Positions 1-43,344 of a stretch of 64,000 bases of DNA are shown here, piece after piece. The notes beneath the pieces are model-generated. The model was not told the DNA's origin. It saw only the letters and a list, made by a program, of their open reading frames with translations, and did no database searches. The DNA is taken from assembly GCA_009929265.1 (NCBI GenBank), contig SAAU01000003.1, positions 17,531-81,530 on the forward strand. The letters run 5' to 3'. How positions within the stretch are numbered: position 1 is the stretch's first letter; every line of letters begins with the position of its first letter. This DNA comes from Alphaproteobacteria bacterium (GTDB lineage: Bacteria > Pseudomonadota > Alphaproteobacteria > CASFRQ01 > SAAU01). Both the position numbers and the translations under genes were made by a program.

Positions 1-1293
1 AATTCAATGGGTAAGCTTACTTTAAATATGTTGTTATCATTTGCTCAATTTGAACGAGAAGTATCCTCTGAGAGAGTTCGTGATAAAATCCAAGCATCTA
101 AAAAGAAAGGGTTGTGGACAGGAGGTAACTTATATCTGGGGTATGATGTTAAAAATAAGCAATTAATAGCAAATAAGGAAGAAGTTGGAATTGTTAATGA
201 TTTGTTTAAGCAATATCTTGAAGTTAAATCCATAAGTAAGCTAAAAGAATACACAGATACTCATAATATTAAAAGTAAGCAATGGATAACAGCAAAAGGT
301 ATAGCGCGTGGAGGACACAGTTTATCAAAATCTATGCTTGTAAGAATCTTAAGAAATAAGATTTATATTGGTAAGATAACTAATAAAAAGGCAGAAGCTA
401 TTTATCCCGGCAAGCATAAAGCAATAATTAATCGAGAATTGTTTGATGAAGTGCAAAATCTTTTAACTGAGCAATGTAATAGAAAAAACAATACTTATTT
501 TAAAGATGCCTATTTACTAACTGGGAAGATTATAAATAGTGAGGGAGAGAAGTTTACTAATCAAAAATCATCAAAACATGCAATTAAAAAATATAGATAT
601 TATAAACAAAAAGGATTGTATCTTCCTGCTGGAGATATTGAAAAAATCACATTTAATGTTATTCAAAGTTTTTTAAATACAGATTTAGAGTTGATAGGGA
701 AAGATAAGTCATTAGACTTTAAATTAATTAACTGGGATATATTAGGACAGTATGAAAAATCAGATTTAACAAAAGAGATTATAGACAAAATAATTTATAC
801 AGAAAACAAACTAACTTATTTTATTAATATAGAAAATACTTCTTATCTAAATAAATTTAAAACAGAGAATTATTACAACAGTAAAGCCCAATCTATAAGC
901 AAAGATATCTATTTAAGCACAGATGCAAAGCGCTTAATTTTAGAGAAAGAGATTTATATAAACAACAGAATCTCAACTAACAGATATGAGGCTTGTGGTA
1001 AGAAAATTTTAACCAAGTCAGAAAATTCTAACTATTTAATTAAGGCTATAAGCTATGCTTATAGATATAAGAAGATGTATGAAGAAGGATTAACTATCAA
1101 AGAAATAAGAGTAAAAGAACATACAAGCATTAGAAATGTTTATAGATATGTAAATTTGGCGTATTTATCCCCTAATATAATAGGGAATATACTTGATAGT
1201 CATGTGCCAGAGAGTGTTGATCTACAAACCTTATTCAAAATATCTACAGAGTTAGACTTTATAAAACAAGAAAAGTTATTTTATCAAGCCTAA
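1..1293 (+). CDS. Large serine recombinase (resolvase/invertase-type catalytic domain followed by recombinase domain), 5'-truncated at the window edge; the listed Met is an artefact
   Basis: The translation opens with ...LTLNMLLSFAQFEREVSSERVRDKIQASKKKGLWTGGNLYLGYD, the typical end of a serine-recombinase catalytic domain, and continues into a long recombinase-type domain. The ORF runs to the first base of the window, so the N-terminus is missing. The region is very AT-rich. Confidence 0.65.
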   Translation, partial: NSMGKLTLNMLLSFAQFEREVSSERVRDKIQASKKKGLWTGGNLYLGYDVKNKQLIANKEEVGIVNDLFKQYLEVKSISKLKEYTDTHNIKSKQWITAKGIARGGHSLSKSMLVRILRNKIYIGKITNKKAEAIYPGKHKAIINRELFDEVQNLLTEQCNRKNNTYFKDAYLLTGKIINSEGEKFTNQKSSKHAIKKYRYYKQKGLYLPAGDIEKITFNVIQSFLNTDLELIGKDKSLDFKLINWDILGQYEKSDLTKEIIDKIIYTENKLTYFINIENTSYLNKFKTENYYNSKAQSISKDIYLSTDAKRLILEKEIYINNRISTNRYEACGKKILTKSENSNYLIKAISYAYRYKKMYEEGLTIKEIRVKEHTSIRNVYRYVNLAYLSPNIIGNILDSHVPESVDLQTLFKISTELDFIKQEKLFYQA

Positions 1294-1467
1294 TTTGTTT
1301 ATTTTTTTCTTTACGTTCTGATCTTATTTTAGAAACCATATAAAACATCTAATTAAATTTTAATATCCTTTAGATAAGTCTTTTTATTCATCAAACATTT
1401 GAATAGCTATTATAAATTGTTGTGAAAGTGAATCTCCGGAAAATGACTTAAGATATTAATTCGTTTT

Positions 1468-1674
1468 CTAATTTAACAAATATAGGCTCATATTTAATAC
1501 TGATGCGAATGATATCCATATCAGATAAGGGATGAGAAGATAGGTAATTTTCCGATCAATATGATAAGTAATATGCATAAAACAAATCAATGTAGTAATT
1601 AATAGAAGAAGAACTCCAAACGCTATTAATAAGAAATGCAACTCAAAAAATACATACGACCAAAGTGCATTCAA
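1468..1674 (-). CDS. Hypothetical small hydrophobic protein (68 aa), two predicted TM helices
   Basis: ORF in the AT-rich spacer between the recombinase and tRNA-Ser. The translation is highly hydrophobic. There is no clear RBS, so this is weak. Confidence 0.15.
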   Translation of the reverse strand: MNALWSYVFFELHFLLIAFGVLLLLITTLICFMHITYHIDRKITYLLIPYLIWISFASVLNMSLYLLN

Positions 1675-1930
1675 GATTAAATGTATGCCTAATATAATAA
1701 AAGGGAGACGCTTAACTCAAATATATTTGGAGCGGTAAGGTATAATTTTTAAGTATATCCTTTTCTTTAATAGGTAGTGACTATGCTAAAATGGGCATTG
1801 TATAGAAATTGGTGGAATTTTGGTTTTTAAGAGCTTGCCGCAGTCAAGGGTCGTTATTTCACCTGCTATATGGCGCGGAGCCGCGCCGAAAACAACAAAA
1901 AACACTTTAAAATCAACAGGTTGATGTTAA

Positions 1931-2020
1931 TGGCGGATAGGGAGAGATTCGAACTCCCGGAGGGTATCACCCCTCAACGGTTTTCAAGACCGCCGCATTA
2001 AACCGCTCTGCCACCTATCC
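1931..2020 (-). tRNA. tRNA-Ser (anticodon TGA), class II with long variable arm
   Basis: The reverse complement reads GGATAGGTGGCAGAGCGG...GGTCTTGAAAACC...GGGAGTTCGAATCTCTCCCTATCCGCCA. It has a 7-bp acceptor stem, an anticodon loop CTTGAAA, a long variable arm, a GTTCGAATC T-loop and an encoded CCA. It is 90 nt long. Confidence 0.85.
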
Positions 2021-2097: not shown

Positions 2098-3603
2098 TTA
2101 GGAAAGAAACAGAGTCATTAAATACGCGTCATAATATTTGTTTCCAATACGAATAGTCTTTTTCAAAAGCCCTTCATACACAAACCCAAAGCGTTTAAAA
2201 ATCTCTAAAGCCCGCTTATTTCTTGTGTTCACATAAACTTGAACCCGTTTAATGCCATTTTTCTTTGCAAAAAGAATCGCCTCCATCAAAAGATATGTCC
2301 CGATAGAGCGCCCCCAATAGGCTTTTAACACAGAAAGGCTAAGCTCTGCATTATGTTGAACTCGTTTTTTTACTGGACGCCTTAAGGAGCAAATTCCAAC
2401 AATTTTCCCCTTCACAACGGCTTTGAGGAATACCCCCTCCTCTGGCGTGATTGTGTCGTATAAAGAGGCCAAATATTTCGTATCCACTAGCCATTCTAGG
2501 GATTGAGAAGCCAAAAACTTTGTTTCATTTGTCACTTGTTGAAGGTAAAACTTAACTTCCTGCGCATCCTTAGAAACAAGAGGCGAAATCTTAACGTCTT
2601 CTTTTCTTAGTTTCCCGCGCAACCTACGCATATCTTTTTTAATATAAAGAGCAAAACTTTTAACCGCTTTTCTTGCATCTAATCCAAAATAAAATCCCAT
2701 AATATACAAGAATAAAAACCTATCTAATTTTGGCAAGAACAGCTTTTTGCGTATCCGAGTGACAGTCTTTTCAAAAAGAGAGGTAATCGGCTTTTTGGGA
2801 CGTAAACTTGCATAATAAATATAGTTATACCCCGCCTCCAATAAGCGTTTTAAGATGACTTTTTCTTCTTCACTATTCATAGGAATTGATTCGAAAAAAT
2901 TATATCTGGCAAAAAATCCATCATAAAGAACTTGACGGTAATCTTTACTTAACAAAACCTCATCTGGAATAAAGGGCACAAAAAAAGTCGGCTCTTTCAT
3001 TAAAACCATAGATTTTGAAGCAGCAGCAATTTTCAACATAAAGGCCACATCGTGTGTGAAAAGCCCCTCTTCAAAATAGCTGCTTTTTTCTAAAATAGAC
3101 TTTTTAAACAACACGCAAAGTCCTGTTAAATCCTTACGCGTTAAGACTGTTGAAAGCGGATTATCGGTTAGAAAATATTTCTTTTGAACTTTCATCTTTT
3201 TGCCCAAAAGCTCCTCTGGAATAAGGCCAGAGCGTTTTGGCTTTCCGCGGACAATATCGGCCTTTGATTCATACATCGTCTTTTGCATTTGATAAATGGC
3301 ATTTTGGGGGAGAATATCATCCCCATCCATCACAAAAAGAACTTGGCCTTTTGCCATTTCTAAAGCTTGATTTAAACGAATAGAGGGACCTAATTTTTCC
3401 TTGTTTAAGACAATCTTAACATCCCGCATTTGAAGCGCGGTTGTTTTTTGCTTAATGACCTCAACAGACTTATCGGTTGAGGCGTCATCGATAAAGATAT
3501 ATTCGGCGTTATAGACTTCTTCTTGATCAAAAAGAGACTGTATCACAAAAGGGAGAACTTTTTCCTTATTATAAACTGTTAAAATAAAGCTGATATCTTT
3601 CAT
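2098..3603 (-). CDS. Bifunctional glycosyltransferase family 2 (N-terminal) fused to a GNAT N-acetyltransferase (C-terminal)
   Basis: The N-terminus reads ISFILTVYNKEKVLPFVIQSLFDQ...YIFIDDASTDKS...FVMDGDD, which is a GT2 DxD fold. The C-terminal ~150 aa read VVKGKIVGICSLRR...LSVLKAYWGRSIGTYLLMEAILFAKKNGIKRVQVYVNTRNKRALEIFKRFGF, a GNAT acetyl-CoA-binding core. A GAGGTG RBS precedes the ATG at 3603. Confidence 0.6.
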   Translation of the reverse strand: MKDISFILTVYNKEKVLPFVIQSLFDQEEVYNAEYIFIDDASTDKSVEVIKQKTTALQMRDVKIVLNKEKLGPSIRLNQALEMAKGQVLFVMDGDDILPQNAIYQMQKTMYESKADIVRGKPKRSGLIPEELLGKKMKVQKKYFLTDNPLSTVLTRKDLTGLCVLFKKSILEKSSYFEEGLFTHDVAFMLKIAAASKSMVLMKEPTFFVPFIPDEVLLSKDYRQVLYDGFFARYNFFESIPMNSEEEKVILKRLLEAGYNYIYYASLRPKKPITSLFEKTVTRIRKKLFLPKLDRFLFLYIMGFYFGLDARKAVKSFALYIKKDMRRLRGKLRKEDVKISPLVSKDAQEVKFYLQQVTNETKFLASQSLEWLVDTKYLASLYDTITPEEGVFLKAVVKGKIVGICSLRRPVKKRVQHNAELSLSVLKAYWGRSIGTYLLMEAILFAKKNGIKRVQVYVNTRNKRALEIFKRFGFVYEGLLKKTIRIGNKYYDAYLMTLFLS

Positions 3604-5669: not shown

Positions 5670-6890
5670 ATGAGCAAAAAAGGAATTCTTTTTATATTTT
5701 TTTGTTTTTTCTTTTATAGTTTTTCAGCCTTTTGTGTTCAAAAAGACTCTTTAGTTGCGGATGTCTCAAGTGGATATATTTTAACGGCCGAAAACGCCGA
5801 TGACATCATTTATCCAGCGTCCTTAACAAAACTGATGACGCTTTATCTCACTTTTTCCGCTTTAGACAAAGGCCTTATCAAATGGGAAGATACGCTTTAC
5901 ATCTCAAAAAAAGCCATCGCCCAACCCAAATCCAAAATCTATATTGATACCAAACGCCCTTTAACTGTTCGGGAAGCTGTCATGGCCTTGATTGTAAAAT
6001 CGGCCAACGATGTTGCGGTCGTTTTGGCAGAAAACCTTGCCCCAACAGAGCACGACTTTTCGATTTTAATGACGAAAACAGCCCATAGATTAGGGATGCA
6101 AAACACTGTTTTTATGAATGCCTCTGGCCTTTATAATCGCAAGCAAATCTCAAACGCAAAAGATATGGCAATTTTGGCGTTGGCTCTTTTAAATCATTTT
6201 CCGCAATACTACCCTTTATTCAAAACGAAATTCACAAAAGTTCAGGGTAAAGTCTATGGCAATCACAATAACATTATTCATTATTACAAAGGGTCAGAAG
6301 GCCTTAAAACAGGCTATCTTTACGCCTGTGGCTATCATGTGATTAGCACGTGCACACGAGGGAAAAACCATCTCGTTGCCTTAAGCCTTGGGCAAAACTC
6401 TGTTAAAGCACGTGATAAAAGTGTTGTCCATCTTCTAAACGCAGGATTTAAAGAAATTAAAACGCTTAAGCACTCGAATAAAGAAAATCCCAACAATCCT
6501 TTTGAGAAAAAAGCCCTTCTAAAAAAGCCTCCTTTAGACGATATTCTTCACGAAATGAAAACGGCCTATGCAGAAAAACACCCGAATCCGTCAAAGGTTT
6601 TCTTGCCAACGAAAAAGCCTCACATCCCTGTCTATGCCACGTCAAAGGAAGAAAATACTTATTGGCAAGCTCAAGCAGGGGCCTATTCGTCTCTCTTCAC
6701 CGCTCTTAAAAAAGCCAAAGACATTGAGACTCTTCTTGGTGGGTTTGGAAGTGTTCAAATCTTACCTTTTAAGGATATTTATCGCGTCCGTGTCTTTGAC
6801 CTAGAAAATCGAAAAAAAGCTGTTGAAGTATGTAGACTTTTGGAAAAAAATGCATTACCTTGTTTTGTAGTTGCCCCGTCAAAGGATTAA
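5670..6890 (+). CDS. D-alanyl-D-alanine carboxypeptidase (PBP5/6 class, S11 peptidase) with C-terminal SPOR domain
   Basis: Signal peptide, then the SxxK active site (ASLTKLMT), the SAND motif (KSANDVAVV) and KTG (LKTGY). The C-terminal ~80 aa read YWQAQAGAYSS...YRVRVFDL, which is SPOR-like. Confidence 0.8.
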   Translation: MSKKGILFIFFCFFFYSFSAFCVQKDSLVADVSSGYILTAENADDIIYPASLTKLMTLYLTFSALDKGLIKWEDTLYISKKAIAQPKSKIYIDTKRPLTVREAVMALIVKSANDVAVVLAENLAPTEHDFSILMTKTAHRLGMQNTVFMNASGLYNRKQISNAKDMAILALALLNHFPQYYPLFKTKFTKVQGKVYGNHNNIIHYYKGSEGLKTGYLYACGYHVISTCTRGKNHLVALSLGQNSVKARDKSVVHLLNAGFKEIKTLKHSNKENPNNPFEKKALLKKPPLDDILHEMKTAYAEKHPNPSKVFLPTKKPHIPVYATSKEENTYWQAQAGAYSSLFTALKKAKDIETLLGGFGSVQILPFKDIYRVRVFDLENRKKAVEVCRLLEKNALPCFVVAPSKD

Positions 6891-6924: not shown

Positions 6925-7662
6925 ATGAAAACAAGATATGTCTTTGCCTTTCTTCCTCTTTTTTTAAGTGCCTGCTCTACCCCTTCTGAAATGAAAGAGC
7001 TTAAAGTTTCCGATAAAACTGTTTACTTGGATGCCTTAACCCTGATTGATAAAGGCGAGTATACAAAAGCTGTTTCGGCCTTTGATTCTTTGGAAAGAAA
7101 TTATCCTTACTCTTCTTGGGCAAAAAAAGGTCAACTTATGGCCTCCTATCTTCTTTATCGGAAGGGAAAATATGCTGATGCCCTGCTTGTCTTAGATAGA
7201 TTTATTGCCCTTCACCCTGGGGATAAAGACGCCCCTTATACCTACTTTTTAAAGGGAATGTGCTTTTATGAACAAGTCGTTGATGTTGAACGGGATCAAG
7301 AGTTTTCAAAAGAGGCTTTCAAAACTTTTAATGAGCTTCTTTTACGATTCCCAACCTCCCCTTATGCTAAAAAAGCACAAGAACTTCTTTCCATCAGTCT
7401 AGATCAACTCGCGGGCAAAGAAATGGAAATTGGCAGGTTTTATCTAAAGGACGGTAATATTTCGGCTGCAATTTCCCGCTTTCAAACGGTTCTTCAAAGA
7501 TACGGCAAAACGCCTTATGTAGAAGAGGCCCTCTATCGTCTTGTCGAAAGTTATCATATTTTAGGATTAAAAAGCCAAGAAAAAGCTCTTTTAATTACGC
7601 TTCAAAAGTCATATAAAGATTCTAAATGGACGGCAAAAGCCACCGCTTTGTTAGGAAAATAA
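6925..7662 (+). CDS. bamD: Outer membrane protein assembly factor BamD (TPR lipoprotein, YfiO/ComL family)
   Basis: Lipobox LFLSAC, TPR-like repeats, 245 aa. The conserved order bamD-recN-ligA supports the call. Confidence 0.65.
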   Translation: MKTRYVFAFLPLFLSACSTPSEMKELKVSDKTVYLDALTLIDKGEYTKAVSAFDSLERNYPYSSWAKKGQLMASYLLYRKGKYADALLVLDRFIALHPGDKDAPYTYFLKGMCFYEQVVDVERDQEFSKEAFKTFNELLLRFPTSPYAKKAQELLSISLDQLAGKEMEIGRFYLKDGNISAAISRFQTVLQRYGKTPYVEEALYRLVESYHILGLKSQEKALLITLQKSYKDSKWTAKATALLGK

Positions 7663-11472: not shown

Positions 11473-14400
11473 ATGGAAAACAAAAACGAAAATCTTTTAG
11501 ATAAAACGCCTTCTGAGGATACAGAAAATCAAGATTCTCTTACGGATGAACTTCTTAAAGAAGAAGACATTATCGATTTGGGAAATGAAAAATCCCTCAA
11601 AGAAGATGAAATTGATGAATCTTCCATTTTTGATGTTTCTCTTTTGAATAAAGAAGAAGAGCAAAAGAAAAAATCTGAAGATGATTTTGAATACGACACC
11701 GACCTTCTTGAAGACACCCCTATTGTCAAAGATGAAATGCCGCTTCCTTCTTTAAATGAACCCCTTGATCCCTCTATTGAAGAAGAAACTCCTATTTCAG
11801 AGGAAATCCCTACCGATGAAGATCTTTCTAAAGAAGAAACACCTACTGACGAAGAAACTGCTGAGGATGAAACCCCTGTTGAGGAGGATGAAGTTTCTGA
11901 AAAAACACCTGTTGAGAAGGAAGCACCAGCTGAGGATGAAGCCCCTGTTGACGAAGAACCTTCTGTCGATAATGAAGCCCCAGCTGAGGATGAAACACCT
12001 GAAGAAGACATTTCTTTAGATGAAGAAAGCATTTTGGAAGTCCCTTCCTCAAAAGGACCTATTGGTCCTCCACGCGCACATTCATTTGAAAAAAAGGACG
12101 TTGAAGGAGAAGAAAACCCTTCCGATATTTTAGAGGGGGCCCCTTTACAAGATGAGGAGGAAAAAGAAGAGGTTATCTCTGTTCCTAAAAACGAAGTTTA
12201 TGAAGTTGTCACGCCTTCCATTTTAAACACAGGAACGAAAAACGGCAAAAATACAAAAAGAAGACGGGTTGTTATTCAAACGACTTGTCCTGTTCAAAAT
12301 AAAGCTCCTCTTTTAGCTCAATTTTCAAGAACTTTTAAGTGGTATCTTCTCTTCCCTTTAGCAGGTCTTGGAATTATTTTTCTTGTTGGCGCTTTGGTTC
12401 TATACCTTTCAACGCCGCATTTTGTAAACAACTTTATGAAACGACAACTTCCAAATATTAGCTATACATTGGATTCGCACAGCTATAGCATGTTGGTCTT
12501 TAAAAATATTTCAGATAAATCTAAGGTCTTAAAAGCCGATAAAATTATCGTTTCTTATAATCTGTTTGATATTTTCTCAAGACGGGTGCAATCCATTGAA
12601 ATTAAAAATATTTCCGTTCCTATTAGCGGGATTTCTAAAGATTATTCCATTTACGCAGGAGAACTGCCAAAAATCTTGAAATCTCTTACAGATAAAGAAA
12701 AGGGCCTTTCTATCAGCTCTATTACGTTCTCTTCTTCAAAAGGGCTTCTTTCTTTAGAAGGAACAGATATTCCTTTCTCTTTTTCTGCAACAGGACAAAT
12801 GAAAGGCATCCCTCAATTCCACATTCCCTTTAGCTTTAAGGAAAAAAATGTGGATGTAAAAGACGGATTTTTAACCTTAACGCAACTTTCAGATAAAACA
12901 AATTTGGATTTCAAGATAAAAGGAGGAAATGTTGTTTTAAATAAAAAACCTTATAATTTCTCTGGCACAGTTCAAATGGAAATTGCGCCAAATGCTTTAA
13001 TTAAAACAGTGACATTCAACTTCAAAACAGAAGATGATTTCTTGTTAAAAGCCACTCTTTACCCCACATTAGAAGGGGAAAAAGTTTATAATTTTGAGGC
13101 TTCTTTAAAAGGGAGTTATTACGAAAAAAAATTCTTTAAGACAAAAATGCCTTTTGCTTTAACGGCCTCTTTAAAGAACATTTCTTTTTCGGAAAATCTA
13201 GATAAAATTTATTCTAATTCATCTTTGTTAATTTCTGGAGAAAACCTTGAATATAAAAATATGTTCGCTAAAAAAGCACAACTTCTCTTGAATGGACTTT
13301 TCCTTTGTGAAAAAAAGAAAGATTGTTTTTACACATTAAGTCAGGAACATGTTTCAAAAATTGGGTTAACAGAAATTTTTGTTAAAACAAAAGATGCCAT
13401 TCTTCGGACACGCTCTTCTTTTGTTTCTGAGATTGAACCTGCAAAAGATGGGAAACCCCTCTTTGCCTCTAATGGAAAAAATTTGGCCTTAAACGGGGTA
13501 TTAAAATCAATTGCCTTAAAAGGAGAAGCCCTTAGCTTTTCAGAAAAAGACGCCTTTGATTCTCTTATTCGCGGCTTATCTTTTAACTTAATTGCCGAAG
13601 ATAACTTTGTTCTTTCCTCTTCAGATTTTAATTTTGCCAATGCGCAAATTTCAATTATGAATGGACAATTTAATCTTTCCTCTAAAGGAAAAGAAAAAAC
13701 CTTGATGTTCAACGCGCCAAAAATAGAACTTGCCGATAAATCTGTTTTGAAAGACCCGTTTTCCCTTTCTTTCTCAACGAATACGAAAAGAAATGTTCTA
13801 TTTTCTGCTCAAACCCCTTATGTTCAAATGCAAGGCAATGGCGTCATTCGAAAAGATTACAGATCTGCTTTGTTGAACTTTAAGACCAACTCTATCACTT
13901 TTGAAAAAAACCTTGAACCTGTCCTTATTTCTCCTGAATTTGATTTTCTTAAAAAAGGAGTTTCTGGTCGCGTTTATGGCACAGGAACGGTCTTAGCAAC
14001 TTCAAGAAAAATCTTCCCTAAAAAACTTTCTTTGATTGTTGATTCTGGTTTGAATTTTTCCTTTGAAAATTGGAACTTTAAACAGCTTAAGGGGAATTTT
14101 GATTTCTTACATTTGTCCCCTTTGACAACCTCCAACGAACAAAAAGCTTTTATTGGACAAATTAACTATGATCCTTTTACCTTTAGTAATATCCAAATGA
14201 ATTATGAAGTTGATGGAAAAAATGGGTTGATTAAACTTAAAGACCTCTCTCTTAATTTAAAAGGGTATCCAACTTTCTTGAAAGAAGGAAATATCTCTTA
14301 CCAATTCGTAGGGGCCCCTCTTGTTTTGAAATTTAAATCTGTAGAAGAACGTCTGATGGAATATTTCAATACAGAAGAAAGAAAATTAAAAGCCTCTGAA

Positions 14401-28476: not shown

Positions 28477-28858
28477 TCGTTATTCTCCTTTGAAAAAATA
28501 AAACTAAAAAGTCTCCATATCGGGTATGGATGGATTTAGTATAAAAGAGATGATTCGAAAAACAAGTAAAATAATATAACAAAAAACAACCCTTTATAGA
28601 ACAAAGAGAAACAAAGAAAAACATAACCTTTTGTTTTTATAAGATAAAAAAATATCTCTCCGTTTTCTCTTTACTTTTAAAAAAGAAGCAACACGTTTTA
28701 GTTTATTAGCGTCCAAAAAGAACTCTTTTTTCTTTTCATTCCCCGACTCAAAATCTTAAAAAAAATTTTCATTTATTTTTAGATTATTCTGCAAAAAAAT
28801 CATTTTTTTACTTGCAATCTTTTTTAAAAATGTGTAAAAGAAACCTGTTTCAAAGGTG

Positions 28859-28935
28859 GGGCGTGTAGCTCAGGTGGTTAGAGCGTTACGTTGACATCGT
28901 AGAGGTCAGAGGTTCGAGTCCTCTTACGCCCACCA
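28859..28935 (+). tRNA. tRNA-Val (anticodon GAC)
   Basis: GGGCGTGTAGCTCAGGTGGTTAGAGCGTTACGTTGACATCGTAGAGGTCAGAGGTTCGAGTCCTCTTACGCCCACCA folds as a cloverleaf with anticodon loop TTGACAT. Confidence 0.9.
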
Positions 28936-28948
28936 TAAAACTCCAAAA

Positions 28949-28985
28949 TGAAAGCCTGCATTTTATATGCGGTCTTTTTTTTGTC
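28949..28985 (+). terminator. Putative terminator after tRNA-Val
   Basis: cctgcat-tttat-atgcgg stem followed by tcttttttttt. Confidence 0.4.
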
Positions 28986-29004
28986 CTTAATTTAAGGAAA
29001 TTTT

Positions 29005-29871
29005 TTATCTACTCTTTTGCGTAAATTGTTTTGTTTTATACATTGGAAGATACGTCTTTCTTTGATTTTTCTTTTTATCTTTTGCCATTAAATAAATATC
29101 CTTAAAGCTATTTATTTTGTTAAATATTTTAGAAATCTTATCTTTGTTTTTCAAAGCTTTTTCTTTATCAAAAATCACTCTTAGTTCATACCTTCCCAAG
29201 CTTCTATCATAATAGAGCATCGCATTTTTACCCTCTTCAAAAAAGGAACAAAAATCAAAAAGATAATCTATTTTTTTGGAAATTCTTTCTTCCTGATGAA
29301 AAGGCAATTTCGTGTGATGAATAACCTTTTCAAGCCTGGCATAGGCTAAAATTTCATCAGAGGGAATATGTTTTCCTTTTAGAATTTCTGGATAATACTC
29401 ATTGGAATCAAAACAGGATAATTTTTCTTCTATGTTTTTTGATAAATAAGCCCTCTCCATACTTTCTTTTAATTTCAAATAATCAGAAACTTTTATCGCA
29501 CTTCGATGATATTCTTTTAGATTATTCGTATCCCGACAGAAAGCATTATACATTTTTTCTTCAGCATCTATTTCTATCACCACAAAATCTTGTCGTTTTG
29601 GCATTCGTTCAAAAGGAGTCACAAAGACATTTTCCTCTCGATTAAAAGGAGATCCTGGAACTTGAAACGGAAAATGTTTTTCAAAAAATTCTCCCCCAAA
29701 GTCATTCTTAAAGCTAAAATACCTATCGGTATAACTTTCTAAACGTCCTTCTTTAATCAAAACTGAAACGGATTTTAGCCCTTCTTTTAAAATACGCTCA
29801 ATTGAAGCCCTTGCTTTTCTGCCATGGATATGCCCCAGCTCATGAAAAGCATAAATCTTATTCTTATTCAT
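29005..29871 (-). CDS. Hypothetical protein (288 aa) with N-terminal HExxH motif (AFHELGHIHG)
   Basis: I recognise no family. HELGH at residues 10-14 could be a zincin-type metal site. The gene is AT-rich and sits next to tRNA-Val. Confidence 0.35.
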   Translation of the reverse strand: MNKNKIYAFHELGHIHGRKARASIERILKEGLKSVSVLIKEGRLESYTDRYFSFKNDFGGEFFEKHFPFQVPGSPFNREENVFVTPFERMPKRQDFVVIEIDAEEKMYNAFCRDTNNLKEYHRSAIKVSDYLKLKESMERAYLSKNIEEKLSCFDSNEYYPEILKGKHIPSDEILAYARLEKVIHHTKLPFHQEERISKKIDYLFDFCSFFEEGKNAMLYYDRSLGRYELRVIFDKEKALKNKDKISKIFNKINSFKDIYLMAKDKKKNQRKTYLPMYKTKQFTQKSR

Positions 29872-30060
29872 AGTTTTCCCTATTTAATTTGTATAGAATC
29901 TAAACTCCCCTGTTTAAATCTTTGGGAATTTATCAAAAAATTAAAATTAAATCAAATGTTTTTAAAAAATAAAAAAAGACTACTTCCCCTTTTTTGAATT
30001 TCTGTTAGAATAAAAGGCACGTTATTTATAGACAATTTTTAGATAAGGAAAGGATTAAAA

Positions 30061-39677: not shown

Positions 39678-40389
39678 GGCTCTTGACTAGCACTTTTTGT
39701 ATTTGTTGAACAATTTTGTAAGGATTTTTTGTAAATCCTTATCCCTATTATTATACCTAAACTCACATTCTTTCAAGTGATAAATGAAAGCTTCATCTTT
39801 AAGTCCATTGAATTTCGTAAGTCTGCGCTTAGCAAAGCTCCAAAAAGCTTCGATACCGTTAACATGGCTCTTACCCCGTGCGAACTCATTATGGCTATGG
39901 AACACGCGATAGTGGTCATACCCGTTCAAAACTAAGCCATCATAGGCCTTCCAGCCATCCGTATGTATAGTCGAACCTTCCAATATTTTGCCTTGAATAA
40001 TAGGCAAAAGTTCTTCCCTAGAACAATTCGGTACGATATTCACAAACACCTGCCCATTCCTTTTTAAAAGCCCAAAAACAGGTGTTTTACCAGCCGCTCC
40101 ACGTCCTCGTTTGCCACGCACCCGTCGAGCACCAAAATAGCTTTCATCAAGTTCAAATATTCCAAAATCACGGGAATTTTCTTCAAAGCTTTGGCGTAAA
40201 ATTATATCACGAAAATGATTGTAGTAGAGATTGATAGTATTGCGATTCAAGTTCAAAATTTTGCTTGCGGAAGACGCTGTAATATCTTCACAAAAATATA
40301 AAATAATACGACCTATTTTATAACTACTTAATCTACTGAATTTTATCATTATTTATCTTAACTGCCTTCTTTTTGCTAGTCAAGAGCCA
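39678..40389 (-). mobile_element. Complete IS1595-family insertion sequence (~712 bp) with 15-bp perfect terminal inverted repeats and an 8-bp A-tract target-site duplication
   Basis: The left end ggctcttgactagca (39678-39692) is the exact reverse complement of tgctagtcaagagcc (40375-40389). It is flanked by aaaaaaaa on the left and aaaaaaaa(a) on the right. A single transposase ORF lies inside. Confidence 0.7.
39687..40349 (-). CDS. IS1595-family (ISXO2-like DDE) transposase, 220 aa, apparently lacking the N-terminal Zn-ribbon seen in longer family members
   Basis: ASSASKILNLNRNTINLYYNHFRD...FELDESYFGARRVRGKRGRGAAGKTPVFGLLKRNGQV...GSTIHTDGWKAYDGL...HSHNEFARGKSHVNGIEAFWSFAKRRL matches the characteristic DDE_Tnp_IS1595 pattern. 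Confidence 0.7.
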   Translation of the reverse strand: MIKFSRLSSYKIGRIILYFCEDITASSASKILNLNRNTINLYYNHFRDIILRQSFEENSRDFGIFELDESYFGARRVRGKRGRGAAGKTPVFGLLKRNGQVFVNIVPNCSREELLPIIQGKILEGSTIHTDGWKAYDGLVLNGYDHYRVFHSHNEFARGKSHVNGIEAFWSFAKRRLTKFNGLKDEAFIYHLKECEFRYNNRDKDLQKILTKLFNKYKKC

Positions 40390-40467
40390 AAAAAAAATAT
40401 TTAAGAAAACTAAAAAATTTCTTGCTTTTTGAAAAAAGATGCGTTATAAATTTCCTCGTTTTAGGAC

Positions 40468-40543
<76 letters not shown>

Positions 40544-40668
40544 TAAAACAAAAGATGGATAGAAATACCCATCTTTTTTTATGCCTAATTTCCTGGCAAC
40601 TTCCTCAACTATAAATTTATATATATTTTTTTATAAAAACTATATCTATCGTTATAATCTTATTACAA

Positions 40669-41619
40669 TTATTTGTTTTTTAACATAATTTTAAATAATT
40701 TTTGATTTTCCCAATTTTCAGGAAACCCCATATCTTTATAGTTAATTTTATCTTCTGATAGCTCTTTATATTTATCAATTAAATTTTTTATTAATGTACA
40801 AAATTTACTTTTTGGATCAATAACCAAAAGATATAAAGATATAATATAAAAAATTGGATATAACCTATCTGTCCTTCCAAACTTAACACTAAAACAACTT
40901 AAAGAAGTATTGTATAAAGCTATATTCTTTGGTTTAATTGAAATTTTTTTATCGTATAATCTTGAATAATGCGCACAAATATTTCTGATATAGGATAATA
41001 CATGTAAAGAATTTTGAAAAAATTTACTATTCATTTCAAATGCCATTGCGATTCTTTTTTTATCCTCTTTTTTAAGATAGCTAAAGATATGAGAAATTTG
41101 ACCAAATGCTAAAAATTGATCTACCATCCAAAAAGGCAGCCCTTTATTTGAATATTTATTATGAAAATCTTTTAAAATCTTGTTTTTCTTATTAGAACTT
41201 TTCTCCAATTCTTCCTTAATTATGGCAATGGGATCATTAAAATTTTCTTTTTTACATTGATAATTACCAAAATCCATATACCAATAAGGACCAACTGTAT
41301 TACACATATAATAAGAAATATGCGTACTGATAGAAATTTCAATTTTTTCTAGAGCGTCTAGAATTAAAGACCTAAGTTTTGAATCGAAACGATAAAAATT
41401 TATAACTTCTTCAAATGAAATATTCTCTTTGAATAAATTCTTTTCTGTTGACTTATCCTGATACTTGAACCAATATCCTGATAACCTATAATACCCAATA
41501 TGAAATAAACATCTTCTTGCATATTCTTTGTCTTTAATCTTCATATTTCGAGATTCAAGTAAAGAAACCTGTTCTTCTATCGTTAATGCAGGTTTGTTAA
41601 AATTTATTTTATTATCCAT
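40669..41619 (-). CDS. Abi_2-family (AbiD/AbiD1/AbiF-like) abortive-infection protein
   Basis: 316 aa. The conserved C-terminal motif LSYIRNICAHYSRLYDKK matches Y..RN..AH..RLW/Y of Abi_2, and the N-terminus GYYRLSGYWFKYQ is also family-typical. The gene sits in an extremely AT-rich islet directly 3' of tRNA-Lys. Confidence 0.6.
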   Translation of the reverse strand: MDNKINFNKPALTIEEQVSLLESRNMKIKDKEYARRCLFHIGYYRLSGYWFKYQDKSTEKNLFKENISFEEVINFYRFDSKLRSLILDALEKIEISISTHISYYMCNTVGPYWYMDFGNYQCKKENFNDPIAIIKEELEKSSNKKNKILKDFHNKYSNKGLPFWMVDQFLAFGQISHIFSYLKKEDKKRIAMAFEMNSKFFQNSLHVLSYIRNICAHYSRLYDKKISIKPKNIALYNTSLSCFSVKFGRTDRLYPIFYIISLYLLVIDPKSKFCTLIKNLIDKYKELSEDKINYKDMGFPENWENQKLFKIMLKNK

Positions 41620-41946
41620 GAAAATTTCTCTAGATAAAATTAAACCCCTCCATGGCTTTCACATCATCAATCTCTAAGATTGAGCTAAGTGGGAGGGGTG
41701 CGTTAGATATATTTATATTATACTTTTGTAAAAAAGTCAATTACTTTTTTACAAAAGTGTTAAACAACTCAAAAAGAAAGGTCTTAAAAATTTAATAAAA
41801 AACTTTTTAAGTTTATTTATACGTTTTTTAATTTCAACCCCTCTCTTAGTTTTTATATAAAAATTGAAATTGTAAAAAAACATTCACTTTACTTTTTTCG
41901 AATCTTCTATATTATTTTATGGTAGAAGAGGAGAACAGGTAAAAAA

Positions 41947-43344
41947 ATGAAAACATTAAAAGAAATTTTACTTTCTGGTAAAAAAGTCTTTCCCTTAATT
42001 GAAGGGGGAAAAGGCATTAACGCAACAGACGGCATCAGTTGCGGAGCTTGGGCTCGGGAAAATTGTGTAGGGACTTTTTCCGCTGTAAGTCCTGATTTTT
42101 ATGATGAAAAAGGAAATGTCCTTGGGTATCATTTTGAAAAAAAGAATCGGAAAGAAAGACATTTAGAGCTTATTGAAATGGTTGTCAAAGGGGCTGTTGC
42201 TCAAGCAAAAAAAGCTTACGAAACATCCAAAGGAAAAGGCGCTATTCATATGAATATGCTTTGGGGAATTGCCGATTCTCACGTTATTATTGAACGCATT
42301 TTACAGAAAGTTCATACCTTGATTGACGGAGTTGTGTGTGGGGCTGGAATGCCTTTTCAACTTGGCGAAATTGCAACAAAGTATCAAACTTACTACTACC
42401 CTATCGTCTCTTGTTCAAGGACATTTCAAATCCTATGGAAAAGGTCTTTTAAGAATTACGTCGAATATTTAGGAGGCGTTGTTTATGAGGATCCTTGGCT
42501 TGCAGGTGGGCATAATGGTCTAACAAATGCGGAAGATCCGAATATTCCTGAGAATCCTTATGAACGTGTAAAAGCGCTTCGTGAATTTATGAACTCTGTA
42601 GGACTTCAAGAAACGCCTATTATTTTGGCAGGGGGAATCTGGTCTTTGGAAGAGTTTCAAAACTATATCGACAACAAAGATCTTGGTAAAATTGCTTTCC
42701 AATTTGGAACGCGCCCTTTAATTACAAAGGAAAGCCCTGTGAGTGAAATATGGAAAAAGGCTTTGCTAAAGGTCAAACAATCCGACATTATCTCACAGAG
42801 ATTTTCACCAACTGGGTTTTATTCCTCTGCAATTAAGAATCTGTTTTTAAAAAGACTTATTGAAAGAACGCATGGGGAAATTCCTTATAAAGCTGAAAAA
42901 GATGACATTTTTACAAAAGAACTTCAAACCTCCAAAACACAATGTGTTTATGTAAAGCCTGAAGATTTTAAAAAGGCAGAGCAGCAACTTAAAAAAGGCC
43001 TGACAAACATTGTAAAAACACCTGACGGGACGGTTGTCTTTATTTCTGATAAAAATTGGAATGAAATTAAAGAAGATCGAAAAAATTGCTCTGGATGTTT
43101 AGGGTATTGTGCTTTTTCCGGCTGGTGTGCAAGTAAGGAAAACAACAGCACAGGAAAAATTCCAGATCCTAGAAAATACTGCATTCAAAAAACGCTTTAT
43201 TCCATTGGGCATGGGGGAAGCATTAAAGAAAATCTTTTGTTCGCAGGAAGCGTTGCCTATAAGTTTGCAAGCGATATCCTTTATAAAGCAGGAAAAATTC
43301 CTTCAACAAAAGAGCTTATTGAGACCCTTAAATCTGGAAAATAA
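41947..43344 (+). CDS. Nitronate monooxygenase / FabK-like FMN-dependent oxidoreductase family protein with C-terminal Cys cluster
   Basis: The TIM-barrel motifs VVCGAGMPFQ and ILAGGIWSLEEF are typical of the NMO/2-nitropropane dioxygenase family. The C-terminus reads CSGCLGYCAFSGWC. 465 aa. Confidence 0.45.
   Translation: MKTLKEILLSGKKVFPLIEGGKGINATDGISCGAWARENCVGTFSAVSPDFYDEKGNVLGYHFEKKNRKERHLELIEMVVKGAVAQAKKAYETSKGKGAIHMNMLWGIADSHVIIERILQKVHTLIDGVVCGAGMPFQLGEIATKYQTYYYPIVSCSRTFQILWKRSFKNYVEYLGGVVYEDPWLAGGHNGLTNAEDPNIPENPYERVKALREFMNSVGLQETPIILAGGIWSLEEFQNYIDNKDLGKIAFQFGTRPLITKESPVSEIWKKALLKVKQSDIISQRFSPTGFYSSAIKNLFLKRLIERTHGEIPYKAEKDDIFTKELQTSKTQCVYVKPEDFKKAEQQLKKGLTNIVKTPDGTVVFISDKNWNEIKEDRKNCSGCLGYCAFSGWCASKENNSTGKIPDPRKYCIQKTLYSIGHGGSIKENLLFAGSVAYKFASDILYKAGKIPSTKELIETLKSGK

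Follow-up and report, generated by a model that had tools for sequence, protein, structure and literature searches.

The stretch of DNA analysed here, referred to below as the window (64,000 nucleotides of contig SAAU01000003.1 from an Alphaproteobacteria bacterium, assembly GCA_009929265.1), opens with 1,930 bp that very probably form the right (attR-side) end of an integrated mobile element, one of a family of small islands of phage origin in Alphaproteobacteria. Comparison with related loci shows that site-specific recombination inserted it at the very 3' end of a gene for tRNA-Ser(TGA), keeping the tRNA intact and replacing only the terminator downstream of it by element DNA.

The clearest view of the insertion comes from GCA_028706035.1 (locus L002), which encodes a product identical to the AccD of the window and aligns with the window at 98% identity over 12.6 kb, the alignment ending at window position 1927. 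In L002 the tRNA-Ser(TGA) gene is followed by a strong terminator hairpin (-19.4 kcal/mol, z -4.1), a tRNA-Arg(TCT) gene, a small open reading frame (ORF) and cysS, and there is no recombinase at this tRNA gene. The homology breaks at 1927-1930, where the window has GTTAA and L002 has CTTAC ahead of the shared TGGCGGATAGG. The window and L002 are thus the occupied and the empty site of one locus. These two closely related genomes differ in having or lacking the insertion, with a sharply defined junction, as is expected of an integrated element. A preliminary description of the window, made from its letters alone, had proposed just such a comparison with genomes devoid of the insertion, and its outcome is that the recombinase is not conserved at this position. 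As a separate observation, an AT-rich patch (28-30% GC) lies at 12850-13450 of L002, between tRNA-Arg(TCT) and cysS, and contains an 84-aa ORF without a Pfam match.

A second copy of the element is found at a different tRNA gene, on a 5.75-kb contig from the public run SRR33312807 (locus L001). The recombinases of the two copies differ at 2 residues. At the DNA level L001 is ~99% identical to the window over 1-1541, unrelated over 1542-1712 and 100% identical over 1713-1937. The tRNA in L001 is tRNA-Ser(CGA), and its far flank is unrelated to the window, the identity stopping 7 nt into the tRNA (TGGCGGA, ending at 1937). The acceptor stem of each of the two tRNAs pairs with its own 5' strand; given this, the end of the identity at 1937 places the exchange point within TGGCGGA, and we infer from the alignment a crossover inside TGGCGG(A). 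The presence of a near-identical copy at a different tRNA-Ser gene also indicates that the element has moved recently and is not tied to any one tRNA-Ser gene. An inverted-repeat reading of the att sites, by which the central dinucleotide might be fixed, was dropped as too imprecise: one reconstructed attP (CAGAATAC-N10-GTATTCTG) centres on the GG of TGGCGGA, and the attB of L002 centres 1-2 bases off. Exact-pattern searches for attP or attL, using the right arm plus core, gave 0 matches in the JGI metagenomes and IMG/VR, and the host left flank likewise gave 0 in the JGI metagenomes. The parts of the border, with the evidence for each, are as follows (L028 and the tandem array are relatives described below):

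1 to 1293, plus strand: large serine recombinase gene, codons 120-549 and stop (Pfam, identity to NCB49446.1, PHROG, AlphaFold)
1294 to 1776, no strand assigned: apparent variable 'cargo slot', here mostly non-coding and AT-rich (comparison with relatives and L001)
1468 to 1674, minus strand: C-terminal half of a TspO/MBR gene, 68 codons, truncated cargo pseudogene (Pfam TspO_MBR)
1777 to 1930, no strand assigned: conserved non-coding right arm, the P arm of attR (L001 identity, alignment with 17 relatives)
1931 to 1937, no strand assigned: putative recombination core TGGCGG(A), spanning CCA, the discriminator and the first 2-3 base pairs of the acceptor stem (L001, L002, L028, tandem array)
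1931 to 2020, minus strand: tRNA-Ser(TGA), intact, the B' half of the attachment site (ARAGORN, Rfam)

The same arrangement recurs across a wider set of genomes: relatives at 44-58% identity likewise adjoin tRNA 3' ends, for the most part those of tRNA-Ser. A scan of one genome per species recovered 28 relatives at 49-65% identity, mostly from metagenome-assembled genomes (MAGs) of gut and rumen Alphaproteobacteria, and 27 of their loci were scanned. In 19 of the 27, a minus-strand tRNA-Ser gene (CGA or GGA) lies 0.3-2.4 kb past the recombinase stop, and in 17 of those 19 a conserved arm directly meets the tRNA 3' end, the boundary always falling immediately before TGGCGG. Two relatives from IMG/VR have the same junction at tRNA-Ser(TGA). 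A single-protein scan of that database had found no close relative, and an alignment-based one did. In the two remaining tRNA-Ser loci, further DNA separates arm and tRNA: L015 has a 0.19-kb insert (12249-12432) that opens with a 19-nt copy of the tRNA 3' end, and L013 a 1.6-kb insert (12473-14078) that carries a Fic-domain gene and opens with an 8-nt tRNA 3' copy. Both inserts start with TGGCGGA, which suggests repeated insertion at the same spot.

Where both ends of an element can be mapped, the repeat between them is short. L028 has a left junction at 3478, where the host terminator is followed by TGGCGGT and then GTAGTAAAC, and a right junction at 12645, where the arm is followed by TGGCGGA of the tRNA, thereby delimiting an element of 9.2 kb in which TGGCGG is the sole repeat of attL and attR. 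The mapped relatives repeat only 6-8 bp (TGGCGG) at their junctions. The direct repeat of the tRNA 3' segment that the preliminary description had told its readers to look for is accordingly present in the relatives in this short form, and not as a long tRNA segment, as is expected for a serine recombinase. Elements also stand in tandem. In L009, left-arm sequence of the L028 type follows the right arm of another element at position 56, delimiting a 12.55-kb element in tandem. The contig IMGVR_UViG_3300029904_000303 has three recombinase genes in one orientation, with junctions at 6302, 21088 and 33753 that all run through TGGCGGA, the last being tRNA-Ser(TGA) itself, and inner units of 14.8 and 12.7 kb.

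Members of the same recombinase clade are also seen beside the 3' ends of other tRNA genes, namely tRNA-Gln, Pro, Phe and Leu in L003, L020, L036 and L050, which implies that the clade has switched tRNA targets. In L036 the right-arm block occurs twice (7083-7300 and 12625-12842). By our own reading, the second copy abuts the 3' end of tRNA-Phe(GAA) and the first a decayed tRNA-Phe-like piece. The DNA between them encodes a methylase, a DUF87 ATPase and NurA and no recombinase, which gives the impression of a cargo cassette with a copy of the arm at each end.

As for the enzyme itself, frame 1 of 1-1293 on the plus strand comprises 430 open codons, the product of which matches the Pfam Recombinase domain (PF07508, E 1.2e-13, fragment residues 60-157) and, at its start, the last 37 profile positions of the Resolvase domain (PF00239, E 3.9e-5). 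This bears out the preliminary description insofar as it had recognised about 430 residues of the C-terminal part of a large serine recombinase cut by the window edge. It had also called the recombinase truncated, which does not hold for the genome: by protein search and exact cluster look-up, the fragment is identical at 430/430 positions to residues 120-549 of NCB49446.1, an intact 549-aa protein recorded as 'MAG: recombinase family protein [Alphaproteobacteria bacterium]', so the gene is whole in its source genome and cut by the window edge alone. The 159,214-bp contig that encodes NCB49446.1 also encodes the AccD (NCB49449.1) and the GT2-GNAT protein (NCB49448.1) of the window.

The catalytic serine motif lies within the 119 residues outside the window, and R11, S13 and D86-R87 are invariant in 20 homologues. 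A PHROG match assigns the recombinase to the integrase family phrog_95 (E 3.7e-91). The full 549-aa protein (P0123) has a resolvase-type catalytic domain that matches the TP901-1 catalytic domain in PDB with E 4.9e-21. Its AlphaFold model (mean pLDDT 80.7) has as best structure matches the full-length serine integrases (9dxf, 9dxd, Bxb1, phiC31, Listeria LI; E 1e-10 to 1e-16), with ~600 columns aligned to them. It displays a helix at 121-154, then a mixed alpha/beta domain at 165-282, beta-hairpins at 296-328 with helices after them, and an extra C-terminal helix-turn-helix-like bundle at residues 458-548.

The tRNA-Ser(TGA) gene was detected by ARAGORN and by Rfam (tRNA, 56.2 bits), with its CCA end at 1931 facing the recombinase gene. 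Its acceptor stem is self-complementary, and by eye its sequence is that of the uninterrupted L002. The minus-strand tRNA-Ser 3' end, which the preliminary description had placed after a spacer of about 640 bp, is thus in position, and the gap itself (1294-1930) measures 637 bp with 29.5% GC. The size and AT-richness given there stand, and only the impression of a featureless spacer has to be given up, since the gap holds a TspO fragment and the conserved arm. The drop in GC content claimed there is likewise real: 1-1930 has 28.2% GC against 36.2% in the remaining window, a drop of ~3 standard deviations (same-size windows: standard deviation 2.6 points, minimum 27.2%), though it is not unique, with two more low-GC patches adjoining tRNA-Val and tRNA-Lys. 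One of these, at 28501-30000 (29.6% GC), directly follows tRNA-Val(GAC) at 28859-28935 and contains a 288-aa ORF (29005-29871, minus strand) without a Pfam match. In the other, GC falls to 25-29% over about 40001-42250, around tRNA-Lys(CTT) at 40468-40543 (plus strand), which is flanked by two minus-strand genes, one for an IS1595/ISXO2-type transposase (39687-40349; Pfam E 1.8e-30) and the other of the Abi_2 abortive-infection type (40669-41619; E 2.2e-51). The segment 39687-41619 may be a second small island beside a tRNA 3' end.

The DNA between the recombinase stop and the arm behaves, on comparison of the available copies, as a variable cargo slot. The equivalent interval in the relatives spans 0.2-2.4 kb and houses unrelated genes, mostly on the minus strand (e.g. 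Fic and Hypoth_Ymh), and the slot differs even in the ~99%-identical L001 (window 1542-1712). In the window it holds a TspO_MBR match at 1468-1674 (Pfam, E 1.2e-15) that covers profile positions 80-145 of 145. We considered an intact or frameshifted full TspO gene and found no convincing N-terminal half in any frame, the conserved arm filling the space where it would lie; with no N-terminal half surviving, the fragment is taken to be a dead cargo gene. TspO as a regular cargo of the family was also set aside: among the loci fetched by then, L001 alone gave a significant tblastn match, covering the last 25 codons only.

The arm at 1777-1930 can be aligned with the equivalent block of 17 relatives, and the block is kept even beside tRNA-Gln, Pro or Phe. 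Its motifs in the window are GTGACT-N18-TATAGAA (1777-1807), GAGCTTGCCGCAGTCAAGG (1831-1849), and two hairpins, one GC (1872-1887) and one AT (1912-1925). All 20 copies of the gut and rumen group that have the junction carry the motif GCTTACCATAGTCA 85-86 nt ahead of TGGCGG. Compensatory changes are confined to the junction-side hairpin, which on the tRNA strand is a terminator right after the tRNA; the window has a weaker AT hairpin there, its arm being a diverged form of the family block. A structured RNA was accordingly not retained as an explanation for the arm, with RNAalifold on both strands finding covariation in the terminator hairpin alone (-7.7 and -13.9 kcal/mol) and no Rfam family besides tRNA reaching its gathering score. 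A 48-codon ORF in the arm was also discarded, as its frame crosses the terminator hairpin and is interrupted in the window version. The arm has boxes that suggest promoters placed face to face, including one for the cargo gene. Across the window (1777-1930) and the blocks in L003-L041, the arm looks better conserved than the recombinase and keeps a fixed distance from the junction; its function could be that of a promoter/operator, a packaging site or a set of accessory binding sites.

The remainder of the element is expected upstream of coordinate 1, and L001 offers a view of it. Here a DUF2924 gene, overlapped at its end by the recombinase gene, is preceded by a 75-aa ORF. The opposite strand then encodes an XRE-type repressor, a metalloprotease of the ImmA/IrrE type and an HNH protein, and has the beginning of a ParB-N/DNA methyltransferase gene. 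Five L001 proteins (DUF2924, hypothetical, XRE, ImmA/IrrE and HNH) are identical to NCB49445, 49444, 49443, 49442 and 49441, the accession numbers of which lead without a gap up to that of the window's recombinase, all on one 159-kb contig. The gene order upstream of the window is read from these identical proteins with consecutive accessions, and covers 3.1 kb of this copy beyond the recombinase. By this reading, the genes upstream of the window are mobile-element genes and not core genes, in agreement with the earlier surmise that the rest of the element would lie there. The ParB-methylase, DUF5681 and terminase module probably lies upstream as well, going by the relatives, in which the DUF2924 and recombinase genes keep company with genes for a ParB-N/methyltransferase, a DUF5681 protein, a terminase large subunit and often XRE and ImmA (of 12 loci surveyed, all 12 gave a ParB-methyltransferase and 11 a terminase large subunit). 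The complete element of L009 encodes DpdB/DndB-like, Dam-type methylase, EEP nuclease, XRE, terminase, DUF5681-like, ParB-methylase, DUF2924 and recombinase proteins and a Hypoth_Ymh cargo. Its PHROG matches are to a DNA methyltransferase, the terminase large subunit and the small neighbour of the latter (DUF5681 in relatives). The inner units of IMGVR_UViG_3300029904_000303 add a reverse transcriptase of retron type (PADLOC RT_VI, E 1e-74), as well as an IetA-like ATPase alongside an Hsp70-like protein. Outside the window, a second recombinase of the same family, 49% identical (P0021, EOM53_01725), is encoded on a 187,713-bp contig; its locus-tag prefix suggests that it belongs to the same metagenome-assembled genome, which would thus probably hold at least two such elements.

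The preliminary description had taken the border for that of a prophage or genomic island. A border it is, as L002 shows, and of the two designations the second suits it better: the complete relatives measure 9-15 kb and lack virion structural genes, which makes 'genomic island or satellite' a more fitting label than 'prophage', and a satellite-like island is more likely than a full prophage. The contrary proposal, that the window opens at one edge of an entire tailed temperate phage akin to WO or AcaML1, with its capsid and tail genes further upstream, is unlikely on balance, though by no means negligible. It draws on the phage origin of the nearest named recombinases (Wolbachia phage WO gp31 and Acidithiobacillus phage AcaML1), on a DUF2924 gene standing directly ahead of the recombinase gene in phage WO too (PMC10299305), on the terminase large subunit and ImmA/XRE module of the relatives, and on the mere 3.1 kb read upstream of the recombinase in this copy. 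However, the relatives mapped from end to end measure 9.2, 12.55, 12.7 and 14.8 kb, and the 25 PHROG families that occur most often among 93 proteins from 12 loci include none for portal, capsid or tail. No portal, capsid or tail gene was found in the complete L009 element, nor a second recombinase or a tyrosine integrase, and 7/10 of its scanned proteins stayed without a PHROG match at E 1e-5. Several loci have the genes for DUF2924 and the recombinase directly after that for the terminase, which leaves no room for a head module.

A fixed, decaying remnant of an old insertion that is no longer mobile appears improbable. The TspO pseudogene fragment that passes for cargo and the diverged right arm, with its weak hairpin after the tRNA, would both suit such a remnant; yet the recombinase ORF is intact with all its catalytic residues, the element is absent from a 98%-identical relative, and the copy at another tRNA-Ser gene differs by 2 amino acids, which points to recent movement. 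Least credible of all is a host invertase or resolvase that merely happens to lie near a tRNA gene, with the low GC being unrelated. JGI annotates several homologues as 'DNA invertase Pin-like site-specific DNA recombinase', but the protein has 549 aa, a Recombinase domain and a serine-integrase fold, the empty site contradicts this reading through a presence/absence polymorphism exactly at the tRNA end, and the same junction recurs in more than 20 unrelated genomes.

Returning to an integrated satellite-like island, we propose the following course of events. The integrase would be the 549-aa large serine recombinase, the gene of which ends 637 bp from the junction; it is singled out for this role as the sole recombinase found in L009, the one complete relative with all of its genes scanned, and as always adjoining the junction. 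It would be co-transcribed with the overlapping DUF2924 gene, and the DUF2924 protein, in view of the overlapping genes and the invariable partnership, may act as a co-factor in targeting or directionality. The acceptor/T-arm DNA of the tRNA would serve as the dominant recognition half-site, as the other half of attB is a different terminator at each site, leaving the tRNA half to carry most of the specificity. Such a dominant half-site would explain both the near-identical copies at different tRNA-Ser genes and the tandem stacking at the tRNA-proximal junction, by integration into attR. After insertion, the conserved arm would supply a replacement hairpin behind the tRNA, with the cargo slot ahead of the arm being swappable. 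The satellite would be induced via ImmA/XRE, excised, and packaged via its own terminase with the help of a phage. At the left junction one would expect the host terminator (ending in CCCCGAAAATATCGGGACTTTCCTTAC), TGGCGG and then element DNA, beside tRNA-Arg(TCT) and cysS.

Several points weigh against this reading. The junctions look like short att sites sharing few bases, but the evidence for this is comparative only, and that from L001 rests on a short contig assembled from public reads. This copy is mapped at its right end alone, and may be a mere remnant or else part of a prophage of far greater size. Integration into attL gives the same tandem arrays, so that dominance of the tRNA half-site is not proven by them. 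The Pfam matches of the recombinase do not include the zinc-ribbon domain known from classical large serine recombinases, and the alignment of its homologues has no invariant or near-invariant cysteine past residue 107; accordingly, its DNA recognition may differ from known models. Finally, a scan for consensus promoters and terminators flags neither of the promoter-like motifs of the arm.

Among previously described systems, phage WO comes closest. Its gp31 (AB036666.1) is the best full-length match among named phages, at 32% identity to the window recombinase, and the module of WO and the proposed Symbioviridae (Wolbachia, Holospora and aquatic MAGs) shares with the present elements both the gene pair and the protein family, likewise in Alphaproteobacteria. 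WO prophages, however, possess head, baseplate, tail and lysis modules, in contrast to the 9-15 kb mapped members of the present family, which have no recognisable structural genes. Of the combination that defines Symbioviridae (recombinase, PAAR and head, baseplate and tail), the structural modules were not found in the relatives, and PAAR was not specifically searched. The recombinase types of WO are tied to particular chromosomal integration loci, in an account the main text of which does not contain the word 'tRNA' (PMC9203015). The AcaML1 recombinase is 41% identical over the N-terminal 63% (catalytic and recombinase domains), and as the similarity ends at residue 346, the C-terminal DNA-recognition part differs. 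AcaML1 is reported to be integrated at 'srrA' with 10-bp direct repeats (PMC3826726). It is a 59-kb prophage, unlike the 9-15 kb mapped relatives. If 'srrA' is, as we take it to be, the tmRNA gene ssrA, its target would be a tRNA-like 3' end with a short repeat, as in the window's family.

The classical large serine integrases (phiC31, Bxb1, Listeria A118/LI and TP901-1) have the catalytic domain, long E-helix and recombinase domain in common with the window recombinase, which matches structures of the class over their whole length (9dxf, 9iu2, 9tep and 4kis). They also share the short junction repeat and directional integration seen here. They typically use protein-coding or intergenic sites and have a zinc ribbon with four cysteines; the window recombinase differs from them in having no Pfam zinc ribbon, no conserved cysteine in that part and the extra bundle at 458-548.

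Genomic islands classically land at tRNA genes, a preference that has been credited to tyrosine integrases. Islands of this type (the Islander class; phage mv4 at a tRNA-Ser 3' end) resemble the present family in the target, in the preservation of the gene and in the accumulation of cargo-rich islands. They differ in using an unrelated enzyme and in repeating at the far end a tRNA fragment brought by attP, whereas the present family repeats 6-8 bp: no displaced tRNA fragment of tens of bases is found at the mapped distal junctions, nor, as said, a tyrosine integrase in L009. Satellites akin to the phage-inducible chromosomal islands (PICI) offer a further parallel in their 9-15 kb size, XRE and ImmA switch, packaging genes without a virion module, site-specific integration and defence cargo, here represented by the retron-type reverse transcriptase and the IetA-like and DpdB-like proteins. 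The PICI-like combination of 10-15 kb, integrase, switch and packaging genes without virion genes is indeed found in the family, mainly on the evidence of the relatives. Unlike PICI-like satellites, the family has no identified helper phage, replication module or capsid-remodelling gene, and its integrase is of the serine and not the tyrosine type. Classical PICIs carry the small terminase subunit only, in contrast to the terminase large subunit of the window's family.

Elsewhere in the window, eleven imperfect copies of a repeat, spaced by 15 or 18 nt and rich in GAA/GAT with CCT/ACT codons, occupy 11767-12026. They appear to encode an acidic low-complexity stretch within a protein.

A single locus of this kind would be an ordinary island border, and the interest lies in the combination of enzyme and target and in the family that displays it. 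Taken together, the junctions resolved to the base, the empty site, the second insertion at an isoacceptor gene, the more than 20 relatives and the tandem arrays point to a lineage of serine recombinases that targets tRNA 3' ends with a 6-8 bp core. Our literature searches turned up no serine recombinase family described as targeting tRNA 3' ends; large island databases may hold uncommented cases. Serine integrases are favoured for genome engineering on account of their short sites and independence from host factors. As the natural target here is a conserved and near-universal tRNA sequence, the family could offer landing sites in many bacteria. The small, terminase-carrying and defence-rich elements may also be an undescribed kind of phage satellite in Alphaproteobacteria. 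Going further, we tentatively raise as a serious possibility that a cysteine-less clade of serine recombinases, always paired with DUF2924, has specialised in the tRNA acceptor/T-arm half-site, with its crossover in the encoded ...GCCA end, mostly at tRNA-Ser and with subclades for Gln, Pro, Phe and Leu. Satellite islands carrying a terminase and loaded with defence genes could thereby insert with the tRNA left unharmed, move from one isoacceptor gene to another and accumulate as tandem arrays. If this is true, the tRNA-specialised clade would be the serine-recombinase counterpart of the tyrosine-integrase tRNA islands.

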